Shown in pieces: positions 7,041-29,749 of a stretch of DNA of 64,000 nucleotides. The translations under genes were made by a program, and so were the position numbers. This stretch comes from an uncultured Bdellovibrionales bacterium. GTDB lineage: Bacteria; Bdellovibrionota_C; UBA2361; CAYQVO01. The DNA lies in the NCBI GenBank assembly GCA_964421085.1, contig CAYQVO010000002.1, positions 91,134 through 155,133 on the forward strand. The letters are read 5' to 3'. Numbering within the stretch: the first letter of the stretch is position 1; each line of letters opens with the position of its first letter. Below the pieces are notes generated by a model. That model worked only from the letters and a program-made list of their open reading frames with translations, did not search any database and was not told where the DNA came from.

Positions 7041-8207
7041 TCAAAACTCCCACAGCGCTTCTACAACTTTCAGCCTCGAGGCGCGCCATGCAGGGAGGAT
7101 TGATCCGAGAAGACCCATAATCAGCGCAAACACAAGCGACTCAAAGGCAATTACCGGAGTAAGTGCGAAACGGAACGTGAGATCGGAAAATGTCTGAAAA
7201 TTGGTCGTAGAAAACGCCTGCCCCGCGAGCATAGATGAAATCAACAACCCAAGCAGTCCTCCGCCAAGCGCAAGGAGCATGCATTCGAGAATGAAAGAAA
7301 ACAGGATTGTCCAACGCGAAAATCCAAGAGTGCGCAGGATCGCAATCTCCCGGATTCTCTGAGACACAGCAGCGTACATCGTGATCATGCAACCGATAAC
7401 TGCTGCCAGGCTGAAAACCATGCTGACAAAAGTTCCGAGGAAGCGGATGAACTTCGCGAGAATGGCGCTTTGCGATTCATAGTAAGCCTGCTCACGAAAA
7501 ACATTGACGCTCAGCCTTTTGTCGTTCTCGAGCTCCTTTTTGAGCGACGGAAAGTCCGCGCCCGGTGCGAGCCGAAACAGAACCGACGAAAAAGCGTCCC
7601 GCTTGAAAACCGGCATCATCAAGTCGGCGTCGCCCCAGATTTCAGAACTGAAAGAAGAGTCGCCGGCGTCGAAAATTCCGGTAATCTTCCATCCGGTGCC
7701 GGCAAGCCGGAGGGTCTCTCCGACATCTGTGCCTGCAAACCGGCGGTGTACAGCGCTTCCAACCATTATTTCCCGTGTTCCGCGCGCCGGCATTCGCCCC
7801 TGTGTGATCCTGGTACCTTTTCTCAGTTCAAAAGCTTCCGGAAATACTCCACGTACACTGATGTTACCCGGATCTCCATTGCTCCGCCTTTTCAGCGAGA
7901 GCAGAACGATGACATCGGCAGTTCCCGCGGGAGCGTTCTCCGAATTCCGGGCGACAGCCGGATGCGACAGAATTATGCGCGCCTGATCACGCGTGAGCGC
8001 GCTCTGCAGCTCATTCTCCGCTCCATTTCTCAGGACGATTACATTGCCGGGCGCGCCCGATCTGGCGAGTGTTTTTTCGAGTCCCTCTGAAAGCATGAGG
8101 GTGGCGGCAAACACGACCACCACCATTGCCACGCCAAAAAGGGTGAGAATACTGGTTGTCCGGCGTCGGAACAGATAGCGGGCATTATATGAAAACACGA
8201 GCGGCAT
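7041..8207 (-). CDS. ABC transporter permease, FtsX/MacB-type
   Basis: 388 aa. N-terminal TM helix, large periplasmic domain, then three C-terminal TM helices (FtsX fold). Last gene of a four-gene operon. Confidence 0.8.
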   Translation of the reverse strand: MPLVFSYNARYLFRRRTTSILTLFGVAMVVVVFAATLMLSEGLEKTLARSGAPGNVIVLRNGAENELQSALTRDQARIILSHPAVARNSENAPAGTADVIVLLSLKRRSNGDPGNISVRGVFPEAFELRKGTRITQGRMPARGTREIMVGSAVHRRFAGTDVGETLRLAGTGWKITGIFDAGDSSFSSEIWGDADLMMPVFKRDAFSSVLFRLAPGADFPSLKKELENDKRLSVNVFREQAYYESQSAILAKFIRFLGTFVSMVFSLAAVIGCMITMYAAVSQRIREIAILRTLGFSRWTILFSFILECMLLALGGGLLGLLISSMLAGQAFSTTNFQTFSDLTFRFALTPVIAFESLVFALIMGLLGSILPAWRASRLKVVEALWEF

Positions 8208-12175: not shown

Positions 12176-12230
12176 AAAAATGGGGACGGTTCCTATTTCC
12201 GCAGCGGAAATAGGAACCGTCCCCATTTTC
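12176..12230. terminator. Bidirectional rho-independent terminator between convergent genes
   Basis: Near-perfect 23-bp inverted repeat, aaaaaaaaTGGGGACGGTTCCTATTTCCGC a GCGGAAATAGGAACCGTCCCCAttttc. It has an A-run on one side and a T-run on the other, immediately after the stop at 12172..12174 and before the convergent stop at 12230. Confidence 0.75.
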
Positions 12231-15131: not shown

Positions 15132-15775
15132 TGATGTTCCATGAAACCGCGCACATCAAGGTCGCCTTCGATACGGCTCTCAACTTCATCTATTTTTTCC
15201 CCGCATCGCTGCCTGACAGATCATTGATGTCGTAAGACATGCAGCAAGTGAATGGAGAAGATGCTCGACAGGATTGGGAGATTTGTCTTCCCCAGGAAGC
15301 ACCGGAGGCTCATCCGCTCCGAGCCTGAAAGGTGGTTCATGCTTCATTTCTCCGCCGACGCCGGAGAAATTCGTCATTGTTGTTTCAGTTTTTCTGCCTC
15401 AGCAAAAGGAGAGCAAAATCGAGGAAGGCCATTTGATGTCTGACCACGTACACATGCTGATTTCCATACCGCCGAAATACTCCGTGGTCCATGTAACAGG
15501 GTTCATCAAGGGAAAGAGTGCGAAACATATTGCACGAGTATACGGCAGCTGGATTCGGAATTTTACGGGTGAGCACTTTTGGGCGCGTGGCTACATGGTG
15601 TCAACTGTCGGAAAAGATGAGGCGGCGGTACGGCAGTACATCAAAAATCAGGAACAGGAAGACCGTCGCCTTGATCAGTTGAAATTGCTGTGAGGAGTGC
15701 CGCCTTCAGGTGGCTCATATAATTATCCGCTTTGAGCGGTTCATGTTGTTAAAGCCTGCGGCTTTGCCGCAGGAT
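15132..15775 (+). mobile_element. Degraded IS200/IS605-family element (approximate boundaries)
   Basis: Contains a frameshifted tnpA. An 8-bp-stem hairpin lies upstream (cttgatgt...acatcaag, about 15132..15163) and a 7-bp-stem hairpin downstream (cctgcgg cttt gccgcagg, about 15750..15772), consistent with IS200 subterminal structures. No tnpB. End coordinates are a guess. Confidence 0.45.
15252..15693 (+). pseudogene. tnpA: IS200-type Y1 (HuH) transposase TnpA, frameshifted
   Basis: The C-terminal part (frame of ORF 15274..15693) reads DHVHMLISIPPKYSVVHVTGFIKGKSAKHIARVYGSWIRNFTGEHFWARGYMVSTVGKDEAAVRQYIKNQEQEDRRLDQL. It contains the HuH motif and the catalytic-Tyr region and closely matches Salmonella IS200 TnpA. 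The N-terminal part (...RFVFPRKHRRLIRSEPERW, matching KYHIVFAPKYRRQAF) is in a different frame (ORF 15252..15443). There is therefore at least one frameshift near 15330..15400. Confidence 0.7.
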
Positions 15776-15963
15776 AGTTACTGTGGAATAGTTTCGTATT
15801 TATTCCCCCCAGGCTATCGTATCTGAAGCTCGAGGAGAACTGTTGCCGCGTCCAATGAGTTTTGCCGCCGTAATAGTCGCAGCACTATCCCCCGAATTGT
15901 CCCCGAAGTCCTGGCGAAGGGGGAAGCCCTGTGCCGGGGGGGATCTGAAAGGCCGCCGTGCCC

Positions 15964-15991
15964 GCTTTATGTGAAAAAACTTTCTGAAAGC
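15964..15991 (+). repeat. Intergenic repeat family, copy A (GCTTTATGTGAAAAAACTTTCTGAAAGC)
   Basis: This 28-mer matches 23165..23192 at 26 of 28 positions. Both copies overlap the start of a gene or mini-ORF beginning MKKLS and both follow a G-run. The sequence contains the internal palindromes gcttt...aaagc and ctttc-t-gaaag. Confidence 0.6.
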
Positions 15992-16525
15992 TATACCATG
16001 TCCGAATCCCGCCGGCACCAGATCTTTCAAACTGTACTCGCGCAGTTTCGCCCGGCTGCAGCGTTCGCTGTCCTGCCGCCCTATCTTACGTACGGACGGA
16101 TCCTGGAGTGCCTCGCGCTTGGAGTCCTGTTGTATATAGAAGTGCTTCCTTCCATAATCGGCATCCTGTTTTTCCTTGCGGCTTTTCTTCTCATGTACCG
16201 CGTTCGGATAACAGCTCTTCTCATCGGGATGTTCTGGACGATCTTCTGGCCGCTCGTCATGCTGTTCGCGGTCTTTTTCCCCCTGTTCAACATGGTAAAG
16301 AACAAATCAATCGCTATGTACATTGCGGCTTTGATGTGCTGCGGATACCTCGCGGTCGCACTGTTCAGGACCCGGGTCATTCCTCATGTGGAAACGGGGG
16401 AATGGGAGGAAAAGAAGGAGAAACTCGTTGTGAAGAGAGATGGGAATGTTATCCAGTTTCCGTCGGGGAACCGCCCCGCTCCTGATAAGAAGGACACAGG
16501 TCCTGACGGGCGGTGGCTGCATTGA
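15971..16525 (+). CDS. Integral membrane protein, hypothetical
   Basis: 184 aa with a GTG start (VKKLSESYTMSE...). Four predicted TM helices and a charged C-terminal tail. Confidence 0.45.
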   Translation: MKKLSESYTMSESRRHQIFQTVLAQFRPAAAFAVLPPYLTYGRILECLALGVLLYIEVLPSIIGILFFLAAFLLMYRVRITALLIGMFWTIFWPLVMLFAVFFPLFNMVKNKSIAMYIAALMCCGYLAVALFRTRVIPHVETGEWEEKKEKLVVKRDGNVIQFPSGNRPAPDKKDTGPDGRWLH

Positions 16526-16555
16526 ACATCGCTGCCCGGCGCTTTCCGCCACGCG

Positions 16556-17785: not shown

Positions 17786-18769
17786 ATGTTAGATGCGCGT
17801 GTTCAAAAGCTGGATAAGAAAAACCTGTACCTCCTTTCTCTGCTCGATTCAAACTGCCGGATGCCCCTTTCGGAAATGGGCGCAAAGCTTCGCATGACCA
17901 AAGAAAGCATTCACTACCGCATAGGCGAACTGGAAAAGTCGGGGATCATCGATCGCTACTACGTCATCATCGACACCGCAAAACTGGGCTACTATTCGTT
18001 CAAACTCTACCTTCAGCTGCAGCGGGTCCGAGGACCGAGCATCGCATCATTTGCCGGGTTCCTGGCGGATGACCCAGCGGTGTACTGGCTTGCGCATACG
18101 ATAGGCAAATTTGACATTATCGTCGGACTTTGGGTGCAGAACCAGATGGAGTTCGACTCGTTTCTAGTGCGGTTGATGAAGAAGCACGGGGCGAAGATTG
18201 CTGCAAAGCAGTTTACGATCACAAAGTATGGGTTTCAAACGAGCAGAAAGTGGCTCTTCGACAATCAAAACCCGAGCCTGTCAATAATCGGAGGACCTGC
18301 CTTCCAGCATTCCATCGACGCCCTGGACTGGAAAATTCTTTCCCTGCTCTCGACGAACGGAAGGCTCTCCTATTCGAAAATTGCGCAGGAGTGCGGCTCG
18401 ACTGCCGCAACGGTAATTTCCCGGGTAAGGAAACTGGAGAAGTCAGGCGTCATCACGGCGCACCGCATTCACCTGAATCTGGAGAAGCTCGGCATGGAAT
18501 TCTACAAACTCTTCGTCGTGCTGTCCGACAAGACCGAGACTCTCGAAAAGAAAATGATCGAGTACTGCAGCAGGCACCGCAACGTGCTGAATGTTTTGAC
18601 GTGCGTGGGTCCCTGGGACATGGAAATCGAGATAGAGGCGAAGTCTCTCGCCGAACTGAACGAAGTCACACTCGAACTACGGGGTAAATGGCCGAAGAAC
18701 GTGCACTCGGTGGAGTTGGTGTCCATTGTGTCCGAGAAGACGCCGGTATTTTTGCCGAAGGCGAAATAG
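17786..18769 (+). CDS. Lrp/AsnC-family transcriptional regulator with two tandem HTH-RAM modules
   Basis: 327 aa. Two AsnC-type HTH segments (LDKKNLYLLSLLDSNCRMPLSEMGAKLRMTKESIHYRIGELEKSGII and LDWKILSLLSTNGRLSYSKIAQECGSTAATVISRVRKLEKSGVI), each followed by a RAM-like domain. Confidence 0.8.
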   Translation: MLDARVQKLDKKNLYLLSLLDSNCRMPLSEMGAKLRMTKESIHYRIGELEKSGIIDRYYVIIDTAKLGYYSFKLYLQLQRVRGPSIASFAGFLADDPAVYWLAHTIGKFDIIVGLWVQNQMEFDSFLVRLMKKHGAKIAAKQFTITKYGFQTSRKWLFDNQNPSLSIIGGPAFQHSIDALDWKILSLLSTNGRLSYSKIAQECGSTAATVISRVRKLEKSGVITAHRIHLNLEKLGMEFYKLFVVLSDKTETLEKKMIEYCSRHRNVLNVLTCVGPWDMEIEIEAKSLAELNEVTLELRGKWPKNVHSVELVSIVSEKTPVFLPKAK

Positions 18770-18835
18770 AACCGGACGGGCATTGGCTGCATTGAACCGC
18801 GCGCATGAATTTGAAACCGGCGATAAGAGATAGTA

Positions 18836-22172: not shown

Positions 22173-23018
22173 TTACGCCGCAAAGATCCCCAGTTGTTTC
22201 GGCCCGTGTCTTTCGAAAGCGGGAGGATCGAGTTTTTCCGGAGCAAGTTTCCGCACTGCCGAAATGAGATGGCGCGCAGAATCAGGTCGCAGCCAGTGGA
22301 ACCTGAACTGCCGCGCAAGCTGACGCGCGATATGAGACGCGCGCATTTTTTTCTCAACGGGTTCTGAACAGTCTGCAAGAGGCCTAATATAAATTCTGTC
22401 TGCGTTTTCCGCGAGCAGTTCAGCGAAAGAAGGCGCGTCCTGCACCCAGTCCCCGTACGGAAGGAGAGGGGCAGCCTGAAGAGTCACCGGAATCCCAAGT
22501 TTGCGGAGAGTCCGAACGGCTCTCAGCCGTTCTTCAATCCGCGGCAGACCTGGAGTGTATTTTGCGACACTCTCCTCGAGGGGAGTCTCGAGTCCTATTG
22601 TGACAGATGCATGAGAAGCGAGGCGTTTCAGAACCGGCACTGCAAGCACTATGAGGGGGCTTCTTGTCTGAACGACAAGCCTTGCGGGTGTGTAACGGGA
22701 AAAGAGATCGAGGAATCTCATGCTCGCGTCAAATCCTCCTTCAAATGGATGAAAAGGATCGCGTGTGACTCCGAAGTAAATGTATATCTCTCTGAGATTA
22801 CCCTGCCTCGAGAGGCGGAGCATATGGTTTTCGAGCTGTGTTAGGGGCGCCTTTCTGTTCAAAAGGTAGCGGCTTCTCAGCTGCGGAACGGCCCCCTCAT
22901 CGTTCAACCGCAGATGAAAGTGCTCTCTCGCGTCGGTTTCAGGAGCAAGTCGATGCGCGCCAACAGCCACTCCATCGGCAAATGAATCGACAGTGTAAAT
23001 GATGCGGGCCTCGTTCAT
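22173..23018 (-). CDS. Hypothetical protein
   Basis: 281 aa, soluble, with no motif I can name. Rich in Arg and Leu. No radical-SAM CxxxCxxC motif despite a faint resemblance to photolyase-like TIM barrels. Confidence 0.35.
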   Translation of the reverse strand: MNEARIIYTVDSFADGVAVGAHRLAPETDAREHFHLRLNDEGAVPQLRSRYLLNRKAPLTQLENHMLRLSRQGNLREIYIYFGVTRDPFHPFEGGFDASMRFLDLFSRYTPARLVVQTRSPLIVLAVPVLKRLASHASVTIGLETPLEESVAKYTPGLPRIEERLRAVRTLRKLGIPVTLQAAPLLPYGDWVQDAPSFAELLAENADRIYIRPLADCSEPVEKKMRASHIARQLARQFRFHWLRPDSARHLISAVRKLAPEKLDPPAFERHGPKQLGIFAA

Positions 23019-23164
23019 TTCGTCTCCGTTACGCAGGTTTAAACTGTTTGAAGTAATAAGCCGGAGCCTTCAGCCGTTCAATGATCCGGATCACTTTAAG
23101 AGGTGCTTTTGGGGGCCCTTTAAAAGGGCTTATATCCGCAATCGGGGGTTTTCCGGAGGGGCGG

Positions 23165-23192
23165 GCTTTATATGAAAAAACTTTCTAAAAGC
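23165..23192 (+). repeat. Intergenic repeat family, copy B (GCTTTATATGAAAAAACTTTCTAAAAGC)
   Basis: Matches 15964..15991 at 26 of 28 positions. Carries a 13-codon mini-ORF MKKLSKSDAFHNP* (23172..23213). Preceded by the palindrome gccctttaaaagggc (about 23113..23127). Confidence 0.6.
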
Positions 23193-23258
23193 GATGCTTT
23201 CCACAATCCCTGATAAGCTGCGAAAATAAACCGGTCGTATCAGAAAGGGCAGAGTACT

Positions 23259-24275
23259 ATGGGCAGGTGGATAAATCGCGGACGTCATGATTCATGGGGG
23301 ATGCACAGAGCTGCTGAGAAAACCGAACCGCTTTCGATTTCGTGGCGGGCGGTCATGGCCGGAGCGATTCTCGTCCTGCTTGCCCTGGAAGTGGTCTGGT
23401 ACTTTGTGCTGCCGAAAAAAAGTGAATATGAGTCCACTCAGAACAAGCTTGCGGTTGGACAGGAGGCAAAGGCCGTCAGTCTGAACATCCCCATTTACCG
23501 GGCAGCGGGACCGGTCACGGCGAGTGTCCGCGAGCTTCAGCGCATCAGAAGAGATGTCGCGAAAAAGCACGATGCCCTCCTTTCGAAGCCGTACCGGAAT
23601 TTCGATCTGCTTTTTATCAGCGCGGTCAGCGGTAAACCCTGGTGGTCGGTTGAAGGATATTATTTTACCGGCAAATCGCAGACCGTCACCCCGGGAACTC
23701 CGGCGGAACTTCTCGGGATAGCGAATCCTTTTCTGCTTGTGGTGCCCGACTTCACCGGTCTCTCAATCCGGGGAAGGCTGGTCTGGGACGCGGCGAAAAT
23801 CAATCCCGATGTCCTTGCATCTCCGGAATTTCCGTTCCGCCCCGAGCCTCATGCTCTCGAATGGTTTCCGGGTCATGCGCGCGCCGAGGTCAAGTACAGC
23901 GTGTCGCACTACATTGACATGGTAAATCGATGGGCAAAGGCGCCTCTTACTGAAGCGGATATCCGCTTTGACGCTGTCACGTATAACGCGATGGAGTTCG
24001 GCTACCGGTACGCGGGCGTTCTGCTGAACGAGTCTTCGAATATCCAGCTCGAAACGGCCCCGTCACCTCCGGCGCCTGTGCTGATGACATATATCAACTC
24101 TCGCGATGCATGCGGAAATCCGGAAGGGTGCAACGTGAGAGCCGCCCTCCCGCGGGGGCTGGTCAATATTCGTGCCGCATATCTTCCGGCCCTTGCTGTG
24201 TTTGGACTTTGGAAGGAAAAACCGGAATCTTCAGAGGTGAAACCGGATCTCCGTTTTGCTATAATAATAAAGTAG
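23259..24275 (+). CDS. Membrane-anchored hypothetical protein
   Basis: 338 aa with a single N-terminal TM helix (MAGAILVLLALEVVWYFVL) and a large extracytoplasmic domain with no recognisable motif. Confidence 0.4.
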   Translation: MGRWINRGRHDSWGMHRAAEKTEPLSISWRAVMAGAILVLLALEVVWYFVLPKKSEYESTQNKLAVGQEAKAVSLNIPIYRAAGPVTASVRELQRIRRDVAKKHDALLSKPYRNFDLLFISAVSGKPWWSVEGYYFTGKSQTVTPGTPAELLGIANPFLLVVPDFTGLSIRGRLVWDAAKINPDVLASPEFPFRPEPHALEWFPGHARAEVKYSVSHYIDMVNRWAKAPLTEADIRFDAVTYNAMEFGYRYAGVLLNESSNIQLETAPSPPAPVLMTYINSRDACGNPEGCNVRAALPRGLVNIRAAYLPALAVFGLWKEKPESSEVKPDLRFAIIIK

Positions 24276-24297: not shown

Positions 24298-24567
24298 ATG
24301 TCGGGCAGGCGAAAGGGCGAAAGCGGTGCGAGTCTTATGGAATACGTTATTCTCCTCAGTTTTGTCGCCATGGCTGTTATTCCCGTAGTCAAGTATTTTG
24401 GTCTTCGTGGGGCGTGCAGAGAATGTGTGAACGCCTGCGCGATTTCGCCTCCGCCCGAAAACGTGGATACGTGGCTGAACCCGGCACACCGGCAGTCCGT
24501 CATAGATGGCTGCGCTTCCGGGTCCTACTCTGTTGAAGCCCTCTGCGGTTCGTGCAGCACCGGGTAA
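24298..24567 (+). CDS. Small Flp/Fap-pilin-like protein with a Cys-rich C-terminal extension
   Basis: 89 aa. The N-terminus, MSGRRKGESG|ASLMEYVILLSFVAMAVIPV, fits the Flp prepilin motif G/xxxxEY followed by a hydrophobic helix. The C-terminal 50 residues carry 7 Cys (GACRECVNACAISPP...DGCASGSYSVEALCGSCSTG). RBS AAGGAGG at about 24283. Confidence 0.45.
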   Translation: MSGRRKGESGASLMEYVILLSFVAMAVIPVVKYFGLRGACRECVNACAISPPPENVDTWLNPAHRQSVIDGCASGSYSVEALCGSCSTG

Positions 24568-27984: not shown

Positions 27985-28349
27985 TGAGCAGGTCGGAAAC
28001 AACAGCGCGTGAATGGCTCGAAAAAGGGCGGGAGTATTCCCGGCGGAACGATCCTGGAGAGTCTCTCGCATGCTTTCTCCGGGCTGTGGATCTCGACCCC
28101 TGGTGCCTCGATGCGTATCTTGGCATTGGAGATGTATTCATGGCGAGTGGTCAGTTCCTTGAAGTATTATCCGCTGTCAATAAGGCTGAGGAACGTTTCG
28201 GAGATCATCCCTGGCTGCTTGCGACCCGTGGACATGCCCTTGTCCGCCTCGGGCTGCGCCGAAGAGCGCTCGCTACGTACGAGAAGGGCTGCCGGCTGTT
28301 TCCGGAAGTATACGAAAATGAACTTTTTGCGCAGCGACTGCGTAAATAA
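27981..28349 (+). CDS. TPR-repeat protein
   Basis: 122 aa with three helical hairpins showing the TPR signature (W-LG-Y-A-F-A-P). The stop overlaps the aminotransferase stop/start (ATGA). Confidence 0.55.
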   Translation: MMSRSETTAREWLEKGREYSRRNDPGESLACFLRAVDLDPWCLDAYLGIGDVFMASGQFLEVLSAVNKAEERFGDHPWLLATRGHALVRLGLRRRALATYEKGCRLFPEVYENELFAQRLRK

Positions 28350-28364
28350 ATGGGGACGGTTCCT
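28348..28364. repeat. Second copy of the 17-mer AAATGGGGACGGTTCCT
   Basis: Identical to 12178..12194, the left arm of the terminator hairpin. It lies exactly between convergent stop codons (28346..28348 and 28367..28369). There is no complementary arm here, only a short local inverted repeat tgtttat...ataaaca. Confidence 0.6.
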
Positions 28365-28366
28365 GT

Positions 28367-29749
28367 TTATTTTCTGAGGGCGAGCCTCTGATAAACAAAA
28401 TCCGGCGCTTTGCGGGCTGTGGCTTCTTCATAATGCGCCTTTGCCGTCACGGCATCCGAAGGATCCTGAGAGGAGACAAGTTCCTCCGCGACGATCCGGA
28501 GGATTTCGTGGATTCCTTCACCGCTTTTGACACCTTTCATCCAAAGCTCCTTTATCCGGCCAGTGTGCAGGGAGAGGTCCGGCGAATCTGCTGACAACTC
28601 CTCCGCATCGAACATCGGAAATTCTATCGGAGAGGCTCTGTTTCCAGGTTTGATTGTAATTCTCGGCATGTATGCTTCGGGAAGATTCACACTGTGAAGA
28701 AATTCAGCGATTTCATTCTCGCTCTCTTTCTTCAGCTGGAACCGCGTGTCGTCCAGACATATTCCGAAGGAATCTCCGCACTTTTTCAACCGGGACACGG
28801 TGTTCATGAACTTCTCATACCCAGGAGAGGGGATAAGGCCGCCTCCCGCAATTTTCGAGATATGAGAGTCATTAAGCCCTGGTCCAATGCACCGGTCATC
28901 GGAGTATTCAAGAGGTTTATTTCGAGCATTTTGCCCCGCGAACAGCTCGTCAAAACGGATTTCGAAATCGCTCTCGATACTCCGGTAAGGTATCATCGAG
29001 AACTGCGAGTGGAGCGCGGCAAAGTACACAGCGAACACCTCATTCAGGAATTCCGGCATCACGAAATCCCTTCCGGACATCCTGGCAGCCGTTATCAACG
29101 CTTTCGAAAGGAGATACAGGTCGAAATCCCGGAAAAGAACCAGCAGTTCCCTGAAGTAGAGGAGGAAGGGGACTGTGTATGTGGTTGCTTCACCCCCGAA
29201 GAGGGCACTGCGGCAGAGTGACTGGAGCTTGACATTGAAATGCGTGAGAGCTTCGAGATCGCGCCTTTGAGCGTAAATGACATTATCGTGCATCAAAAAA
29301 GGCATGCTCAGCCATGCCGGAAAGACGTGAACTTTTCCCTGAAATATCTGCGGGAAGGAACCAAAGGGGGTGATTTGCGGCACTTCCCGCCTGTTCAGCG
29401 CGGGGAACAGCTGCTTCATGGAAGGGGAATCTCTGTCGGCTCTGATACGGAAAATGAGGCTGTCATCGGGACACAGCGACAGCCCATTAAACAGGGTCGC
29501 ATGCTGCTGCATGAAATATGCATGCATCGGGAGAAGGTCTACTGGCTCTGAAGAAACAGTCGTGATGCCGTATTTTCGCAGCTCGGACTGCAGGTGCGGT
29601 CTTCCGACAAGCTCCTCTTTCCATGTCGAGAAGATAATTTCATCGACAAGACCGTCAGATCGCCACTGGAGCAGCCGCGTGATGGTTACCATGAACTCGA
29701 GTGAGTCACGTATCTGACCAGTCACAATGGCATAGATCCGTTTTCTCAC
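28367..29749 (-). CDS. Hypothetical protein, paralog A of a divergent pair (unknown family)
   Basis: 460 aa. The N-terminal roughly 250 aa align with the protein at 29859 (YAIVTGQIRDSLEFMVTITRLLQWRSDGLVDEIIFSTWKEEL vs WAIICGLVRDRRAFEEKINSLVQWRSEGILEETVVSTWLGEL; LCPDDSLIFRIRADRD vs SCPDDAHVLKLRADLF; FPQIFQGKVHVF...DNVIYAQRRDLEALTHFNV vs WPQIFNERVVVG...GDVYFYGLRDDLKKLVTFTV). I do not recognise the family. Confidence 0.5.
   Translation of the reverse strand: MRKRIYAIVTGQIRDSLEFMVTITRLLQWRSDGLVDEIIFSTWKEELVGRPHLQSELRKYGITTVSSEPVDLLPMHAYFMQQHATLFNGLSLCPDDSLIFRIRADRDSPSMKQLFPALNRREVPQITPFGSFPQIFQGKVHVFPAWLSMPFLMHDNVIYAQRRDLEALTHFNVKLQSLCRSALFGGEATTYTVPFLLYFRELLVLFRDFDLYLLSKALITAARMSGRDFVMPEFLNEVFAVYFAALHSQFSMIPYRSIESDFEIRFDELFAGQNARNKPLEYSDDRCIGPGLNDSHISKIAGGGLIPSPGYEKFMNTVSRLKKCGDSFGICLDDTRFQLKKESENEIAEFLHSVNLPEAYMPRITIKPGNRASPIEFPMFDAEELSADSPDLSLHTGRIKELWMKGVKSGEGIHEILRIVAEELVSSQDPSDAVTAKAHYEEATARKAPDFVYQRLALRK

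Follow-up and report, generated by a model that had tools for sequence, protein, structure and literature searches.

What does a short block of DNA signify when it stands, nearly unchanged, in front of two genes for membrane-type proteins? In the window, the whole 64,000-nucleotide stretch of an uncultured Bdellovibrionales bacterium that was analysed here, a 28-nt block, GCTTTATRTGAAAAAACTTTCTRAAAGC, is found at 15964-15991 and again at 23165-23192, on the plus strand both times and 7.2 kb apart. The sequence-only reading that first drew attention to the pair, and whose count of 26 identical bases out of 28 is confirmed, saw in it either a shared regulatory leader for envelope proteins or a duplicated 5' region, and described a conserved mini-ORF within it. 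The block is called repeat A below, and its copies A1 and A2. What is said here about the function of repeat A is inferred from two copies, two substitutions, one relative and a 64-kb window.

Genes at the two sites

Copy 1 precedes a plus-strand gene (15998-16525) for a 175-residue multi-pass membrane protein of no known family. The ATG at 15998 is its supported start: the NCBI protein (P0001) has 175 residues, and a homologue with 71% identity (P0002) also has 175 and is aligned from residue 1. At least three hydrophobic segments are present in the protein. Copy 2 precedes a plus-strand gene (23259-24275) for a 338-residue protein with one N-terminal membrane anchor, a single hydrophobic segment at residues 24-54, followed by an uncharacterised extracytoplasmic domain. 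The earlier description of both downstream proteins as membrane-type is borne out. The 338-aa protein belongs to a broad family, with 439 representatives at E <= 0.001, for which Pfam offers no model; its domain is sometimes fused to Ser/Thr kinases or other modules.

The surroundings of the two copies differ. An IS200-like transposase pseudogene of the Y1 family (15252-15693, plus strand), with its N-terminal part in a different frame, lies 270 nt upstream of copy 1. Hairpins follow its stop, the strongest at 15755-15773, and then TTAC at 15778-15781; copy 1 begins about 180 nt past this terminal hairpin. The pseudogene is outside the A1-A2 interval and is not flanked by repeat A. Copy 2 occupies the centre of the intergenic region between the 338-aa gene and a divergent radical-SAM-like gene (22173-23018, minus strand), two genes whose adjacency is conserved in the relative described next. 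A tandem Lrp/AsnC regulator gene is located between the two sites. No integrase or recombinase domain was detected among the window proteins scanned.

Comparison was possible with a single relative, represented by loci L001 and L048. Each of the two downstream proteins has exactly one homologue in a collection of 5.8 billion proteins, and both homologues come from one sequencing run. The relative shows 67-71% protein identity and 61% third-position identity.

Sequence and extent of the repeat

The two copies of repeat A are 93% identical, and both differences are G/A exchanges, at motif positions 8 and 23. The identity runs three bases further (NAT), so that the extended copies, 15964-15994 and 23165-23195, agree in 28/31 positions. 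A pair of this quality has a chance expectation of 0.00 in 100 shuffles, and when the window is compared with itself by BLAST no other non-palindromic repeat scores as well (E = 4.7e-4). The block is AT-rich, with a G+C content of 25-32% against about 53% for the window. It is sharply bounded at both sites. The flanks show no significant similarity to one another, either on the left (p = 0.29 for 40 nt and p = 0.36 for 120 nt) or over 30 nt on the right (p = 0.18). A gapped local alignment extends the match to 39 identical columns of 48, an extension that is not significant by itself. The G-runs mentioned in the earlier reading do exist, G7 at 15936-15942 near copy 1 and G5 at 23144-23148 with GGGG at 23158-23161 near copy 2, but with flanks that are not significantly similar (p 0.18-0.36) they carry no weight.

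The position relative to the downstream gene is not the same at the two sites. Between copy 1 and the ATG of the 175-aa gene there are 6 nt, and this copy includes GAAAG (15986-15990), the sole Shine-Dalgarno-like stretch of that gene, 7 nt before the start codon. At site 2 the gap from the block to the ATG of the 338-aa gene is 66 nt.

Some dyad symmetry is present. The outer elements GCTTT and AAAGC, separated by 18 nt, are found in both copies, as had been proposed; the second proposed palindrome, CTTTC-T-GAAAG, is perfect in copy 1 only, copy 2 reading CTTTCTAAAAG. GAAA-N4-TTTC forms a further partial dyad within the block. This last pattern occurs 10 times in the window where 2.7 are expected, an excess that was rejected as a signal: the extra sites are mostly intragenic and shuffling does not keep codon bias, so codon bias is probably the cause.

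Searches for further copies

Repeat A appears to be confined to its two sites in the material searched. No third copy was found in the 64-kb window on either strand with up to three mismatches, nor by a covariance model built from both copies and run on the window without filters, and no inverted copy is present in the window. About 43 kb of related loci contain no copy. A stretch at 8178-8198 that matches the left part of copy 2 in 19/21 positions was considered as a third copy and rejected; it falls within the gene for a MacB-type permease, does not reach significance in the self-BLAST, and is missed by the covariance model. Another short intergenic repeat, GGGGACGGTTCC with its flanks, was seen in the window at 12177-12229 and 28344-28368.

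Public collections gave a similar picture. A 21-nt core of repeat A had 46 matches among 185,579 species-representative genomes (the source genome is not among these), all of them single. They fall mostly in AT-rich genomes, none has the flanks of repeat A, and several are ordinary gene starts encoding MKKLSK. A scan of metagenomes produced one match of the chance type, a viral collection produced none, and 72,556 plasmid records gave no significant match (best E 0.5). We attribute the matches in public collections to chance; they lie in AT-rich genomes and their flanks differ.

Reading frames across the block

Could the block be part of a gene? On the plus strand, open reading frames beginning (M/V)KKLS(E/K)S do exist at both sites, at GTG 15971 and ATG 23172, as the sequence-only reading had it. 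At site 1 the frame is an in-frame extension of the membrane-protein gene (VKKLSESYT, 15971-15997), and the 184-aa product that would result is better given as 175 aa from ATG 15998. At site 2 it is a 13-codon mini-ORF, MKKLSKSDAFHNP, with a stop at 23211-23213 (23172-23213 in all). The idea that these frames encode a translated leader peptide has in its favour that both sites possess one, and several points count against it. The site-1 extension is mechanical and is not conserved in the orthologue, where an in-frame TAA stands 12 nt before the ATG; the NCBI model likewise starts at 15998. The site-2 ORF is not conserved either, the relative having ATG-TAA at the nearest position. Upstream of the ATG at 23172 a GGAGG is found, at a spacing of 11 nt, and the GTG frame at site 1 has no Shine-Dalgarno sequence. 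The two substitutions in repeat A turn a GTG start codon into ATG and Glu into Lys, the latter being the sole internal difference between the two frames. With the start codon changed, Glu replaced by Lys and no conservation in the relative, the MKKLS mini-ORF is, as far as its sequence tells, an unsupported mechanical feature that lies outside the conserved protein, and its description as conserved does not hold.

The minus strand offers a second way of coding, in which repeat A would belong to a small protein. Both copies translate there as IAFRKFFHIK, inside ORFs of 76 aa (15800-16030) and 52 aa (23130-23288), and both substitutions are synonymous. However, the similarity of the ORFs is limited to these 10 residues, both overlap the starts of plus-strand genes, and the relative has no equivalent ORF. 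By our own estimate, a pair of synonymous changes 15 nt apart would arise without selection in about one case in four. A coding role on either strand is therefore considered very unlikely.

Comparison with the relative

The age of the repeat can be judged from the divergence of the genes beside it. Third codon positions of the 175-aa gene differ by about 39% between the two genomes and the copies of repeat A by 7%, so the simplest reading of the sequences is that the similarity of the copies arose after the split from the relative. Repeat A is absent upstream of both orthologues in the relative, and the relative's two upstream regions have no motif in common (p = 0.97 and 0.66).

The region around copy 2 can be followed in more detail. 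The radical-SAM-like and 338-aa orthologues are adjacent in the relative, so that synteny spans copy 2. Two intergenic segments at this site are conserved between the genomes, 23020-23109 and 23189-23253; since these are the only conserved blocks, most of copy 2, namely its first 24 bases, falls in the non-alignable centre of the intergenic region. A collinear alignment of copy 2 with the corresponding slot of the relative shows a faint resemblance that is not significant (p = 0.27). Given this weak resemblance, copy 2 might be old.

Around the 175-aa gene the gene order itself differs. In the relative, rimP-nusA-infB come after this gene, an order not seen in the window. The relative has a partial ORF of 48 aa without a counterpart upstream of copy 1; a pseudogene of an upstream gene was rejected as an origin of the block.

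Hairpin and promoter context

A shared cis-regulatory element, recently acquired, is somewhat less probable than the duplication discussed below. Such an element could act as the operator of a dimeric DNA-binding protein or as a leader hairpin that masks the start, and it would place both genes under common control. Both copies are intergenic and AT-rich and have the same orientation as the gene that follows; GCTTT-N18-AAAGC and GAAA-N4-TTTC give the block partial dyad symmetry; and the gene for the tandem Lrp/AsnC regulator lies between the sites.

Both copies can form a hairpin of 11 pairs with two bulges. The pairs run from G1-C28 to U5-A24, continue with U7-R23 and R8-U22, and end with G10-C21 to A13-U18; A6 and U9 are bulged and the loop is AAAC. 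Both substitutions keep the pairing, exchanging G-U for A-U. These are two one-sided changes with no compensatory change, and two sequences have no power to reveal covariation. As 37-mers the copies have energies of -5.3 and -6.0 kcal/mol (z = -2.6 and -1.3 against shuffles). In copy 1 the 3' arm covers the sole Shine-Dalgarno-like stretch of the 175-aa gene. The hairpin might conceivably affect expression, for example by masking part of the ribosome-binding region.

Against a cis-element, the hairpin is weak, and in an 81-nt context it is no better than shuffled sequence (z = +1.4 and -0.6). Rfam gave no match at gathering scores in the window, nor at E <= 1 around both sites. The distance from block to start codon is 6 nt in one case and 66 nt in the other. 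The block is missing from both orthologous sites, with no shared motif replacing it in the relative. An identity of 26/28 is also above what is usual for binding sites that evolved independently.

No promoter arrangement is common to the two sites. A consensus scan found nothing near site 1 or site 2, and neither scan nor inspection revealed a shared -35/-10, sigma-54 or ECF-type arrangement. Individual candidates were rejected in turn. No hexamer spacing works for a sigma-70 promoter within the block (by inspection), and the sigma-54 pattern GG-N10-GC fails in its spacing at both sites. An ECF-type promoter, with AAC at -35 and TCC about 16-18 nt downstream, would start the transcript inside the coding sequence of the 175-aa gene. 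A CRP-like site, TGTGA-N6-TCACA, is mismatched in its right half, again by inspection. The spacing of an archaeal TATA-like element, TTTATRTG, followed by a leaderless start would suit copy 1, yet the window is bacterial, as judged by its genes for bL19, MreB, PBP2 and MacB/HlyD.

Several known regulatory elements can be compared with repeat A. The CIRCE operators of HrcA, which also act as mRNA hairpins, are likewise about 27-28 nt long and partly palindromic, and occur in few near-identical copies per genome in 5' regions. CIRCE, however, is a perfect 9-bp inverted repeat whose arms are 9 nt apart, and it is kept in different phyla and at orthologous genes, whereas the symmetry of repeat A is imperfect (5 + 4 pairs and two wobble-prone ones) and the closest relative lacks the block. 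Like the fourU and ROSE RNA thermometers, copy 1 has a U-rich 5' arm that can pair with the purine stretch before the start codon. Unlike them, the hairpin of copy 2 is 66 nt away from its gene, has no Rfam match and is not conserved in the relative, and the fold of repeat A in context is no more stable than that of shuffled controls. Points that speak against a conserved regulatory leader include the presence of just two copies in the window, the absence from the orthologous sites of the relative, and the unequal spacing.

A family of dispersed short extragenic palindromes without a gene-specific role, of which the window would contain two members, is improbable. The resemblance to REP sequences and their RAYT transposases lies in a short, imperfect, extragenic 28-nt palindrome with bulges and sharp boundaries, and in the Y1-family pseudogene nearby; a second short intergenic repeat in the window (GGGGACGGTTCC) also points this way. 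REP elements occur in tens to hundreds of copies, often as inverted pairs, and flank the RAYT gene. Repeat A, by contrast, has two direct copies in 64 kb and none in the other loci (about 43 kb) or the public collections. It is AT-rich with a weak fold, unlike typical REPs, and is found at the 5' ends of genes, not between convergent ones. The Y1 gene itself is an ordinary IS200-type pseudogene, unflanked by repeat A, with its own terminal hairpin some 180 nt before copy 1.

A second repeat and a rearranged neighbourhood

Repeat A is accompanied by another short direct repeat, repeat B, unrelated to it in sequence. Its first copy, B1 (16505-16527, plus strand, GACGGGCGGTGGCTGCATTGAAC), comprises the last codons of the 175-aa gene (DGRWLH), the stop and 2 further bases, and encodes the conserved C-terminus DG(R/Q)WLH. 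The second copy, B2 (18775-18797, plus strand), 2.3 kb downstream, is non-coding and starts 5 nt past the stop codon of the tandem Lrp/AsnC gene. B2 agrees with B1 in 21/23 bases (31/40 when extended) and with the end of the relative's 175-aa gene in 18/19. On this sequence evidence B2 duplicates the end of the 175-aa gene in part and is clearly derived from coding sequence. Constraint at the nucleotide level was considered for repeat B and rejected: 64% of the conserved residues of the 175-aa gene keep their codon, so five identical codons at the gene end are unremarkable.

When the 701-nt unit of this gene is compared with the window, only two non-self matches are significant, repeat A at E = 4.8e-5 and repeat B at E = 0.002, the next match having E = 0.13. 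Repeats A and B together suggest that short pieces of both ends of the 175-aa gene were copied within a few kb, in a neighbourhood that has undergone rearrangement. Between B1 and B2 stands a 2.2-kb module of two genes, one for a substrate-binding protein and the other the tandem Lrp gene. The tandem Lrp protein has its best homologue (55%) on a contig that carries archaeal-type genes, and no close homologue from the relative's sample was returned by the search.

The order of the copies is A1-B1-B2-A2, all on the same strand. Integration into the 3' ends of genes typically leaves a copy of that 3' end. The copies could be read as att-like sites, nested direct repeats of 23-31 nt that bound inserted gene modules: B2 repeats the 3' end of what would be the target gene, and the regulator in the bracketed module has no close homologue from the relative's sample. 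There is little to recommend this reading, given that no integrase or recombinase was detected among the window proteins scanned, that A and B are unrelated in sequence, and that the genes on the two sides of copy 2 adjoin each other in the relative as well, so that copy 2 is no island boundary. The same synteny contradicts a 7.2-kb island bounded by A1 and A2. A looser version, in which A and B are recombination sites of exchangeable modules served by a recombinase encoded elsewhere, somewhat in the manner of pdif modules, would be just as improbable.

Sites of known mobile elements were compared as well. Repeat A shares its length of 28 nt with the dif and pdif sites of XerC-XerD (11-6-11), and by inspection TTATGTGAAAA resembles the consensus XerD arm, TTATGTTAAAT, in 9/11 positions. 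A Xer site was rejected, with the inner dyad ATAA-N6-TTAT missing and the conserved block extending to the wrong side of the XerD-like arm. The end of an insertion sequence or a MITE was set aside in view of the lack of a significant plasmid-database match and of any inverted copy in the window. The block is not the right end of the IS200 relic, whose own hairpin and TTAC are found about 180 nt before copy 1, and subterminal hairpins of the IS200/IS605 type were rejected on two grounds, the position of the transposase pseudogene outside A1-A2 and the synteny across copy 2 in the relative.

Origin and meaning of the repeat

Repeat A looks like a young, local and fairly ordinary repeat, neither a conserved regulatory motif nor a translated mini-gene. 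The leading explanation, to which we give a probability of about 0.4, is that it is a lineage-specific relic of local duplication or rearrangement. This reading is ranked first because it explains the sharp borders, the high identity, the absence in the relative and the companion repeat B. Between the two explanations offered from the sequence alone, then, the duplicated 5' region fits better than the shared regulatory leader. The sequence-only reading had also named what would speak against a regulatory motif, just two copies without a fixed position relative to promoters or a local duplication, and within the material searched this is largely what was found.

In the proposed course of events, the copying of some 30-50 bases during a rearrangement around the 175-aa gene would have given rise to the two-copy direct repeat. 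Repeat A would be a duplicated fragment of the 5' flank of this gene, although the direction of copying could have been either. Both repeats may be by-products of insertion or recombination in a region that includes an IS200-like pseudogene together with a regulator gene not found in the relative. However it arose, copy 1 now makes up the last 34 bases before the start codon of the 175-aa gene.

Among known systems, repeat A seems closest to the short direct repeats that local duplication, or insertion at the ends of genes, leaves behind, such as partial copies of gene ends beside inserted DNA. Like these it has sharp borders, a length of 23-31 nt together with repeat B, direct orientation and a young age (91-93% core identity), and here too repeat B copies a coding 3' end in a rearranged neighbourhood with an IS relic. 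It is unlike them in that no recombinase gene was detected among the proteins scanned, the order is A1-B1-B2-A2 and copy 2 is flanked by its ancestral neighbours.

Certain features do not sit easily with a relic. No simple single event yields the order A1-B1-B2-A2 with all copies on one strand. The 28-nt core is better kept (26/28) than the gapped extension (39/48), which could reflect selection on the core. Both copies are in 5' intergenic DNA and share the orientation of the gene that follows. Dyad symmetry is present in the block, neither substitution breaks the hairpin pairing, and the source genome beyond the window may contain more copies.

If repeat A is indeed a relic of duplication, it matters little in itself, and would record a recent small-scale rearrangement around an orphan membrane-protein gene in a poorly sampled lineage. 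The start of that gene is corrected in any case, from 184 to 175 aa. If instead the block worked as an operator or a leader hairpin, two uncharacterised envelope proteins, one of them from a broad family without a Pfam model, would be joined in a small lineage-specific regulon, and the block would be an example of a regulatory site spread by copying, not by convergent evolution.

Direct repeats and the tandem regulator

Upstream of the 175-aa membrane-protein gene (15998-16525, + strand), an IS200-like Y1 transposase pseudogene occupies positions 15252-15693; its N-terminal part (FVFPRKHRR...) is in a different frame from its C-terminal part (HVHMLISIPP...), and its stop is followed by three hairpins and TTAC. 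A second short direct repeat, repeat B, begins with the closing codons of the membrane-protein gene (DGRWLH and the stop codon), at 16505-16527. They have been copied at 18775-18797, where the DNA is non-coding and falls immediately 3' of a tandem Lrp/AsnC regulator gene; the extended copies span 16493-16532 and 18763-18802. Together the two copies flank a 2.2-kb module of two genes.

The tandem regulator (17786-18769) contains two HTH_AsnC domains. Its best homologue, with 55% identity (L050, 10001-10987), is on a 130-kb contig that also carries archaeal-type genes (AglB-like, HMG-CoA reductase and UbiA), and the gene may have entered this bacterial genome by horizontal transfer. The 90-nt region upstream of it has a G+C content of 29% and contains the palindrome AGAAATTTCT.

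When the 21-nt core of repeat A, the 28-nt AT-rich direct repeat, was searched against species-representative genomes, it was found twice in one Acidobacteriota genome, MFD04967.bin.2.116 (L011, 7589-7609, and L014, 7389-7409). These two copies are on separate contigs with near-identical flanks; evidently they are that genome's own repeated element and are not related to the window.

Inverted repeats

Elsewhere in the window, AAAATGGGGACGGTTCCTATTTCCGC and its complement form a 26-nt inverted repeat without mismatches between convergent genes (12177-12229). One arm recurs 16 kb away at 28344-28368 (23/25 match), immediately 3' of another stop codon, and the pair may represent a repeated terminator-like element. 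The sequence GGGGACGGTTCC occurs 3 times, versus 0.36 expected.

The divergent intergenic region preceding the 338-aa gene contains the palindrome GCCCTTTAAAAGGGC (23115-23129), 36 nt upstream of the second copy of repeat A. This palindrome is absent from the only available relative. In the relative's orthologous intergenic region (L048, 1202-1313), CAGCGCGTTTTGGGCC and its complement form a perfect 16-bp inverted repeat around 80 nt. This could be a structured element, or else a small insertion of the MITE type.

The 338-aa protein family

In both genomes a small ORF lies immediately 3' of the 338-aa gene (24298-24567, 89 aa, in the window; L048 2444-2710, 88 aa, in the relative). It is preceded by a strong AGGAGG, and its product has a hydrophobic segment at the N-terminal end and no Pfam match. 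The membrane-anchored 338-aa protein (23259-24275), also without a Pfam domain, belongs to a large uncharacterised family, with 439 representatives at E <= 0.001 and 42 at E <= 1e-30. Some members carry its domain fused to other modules, namely a Ser/Thr protein kinase with TPR, DUF2207, or zinc ribbons.
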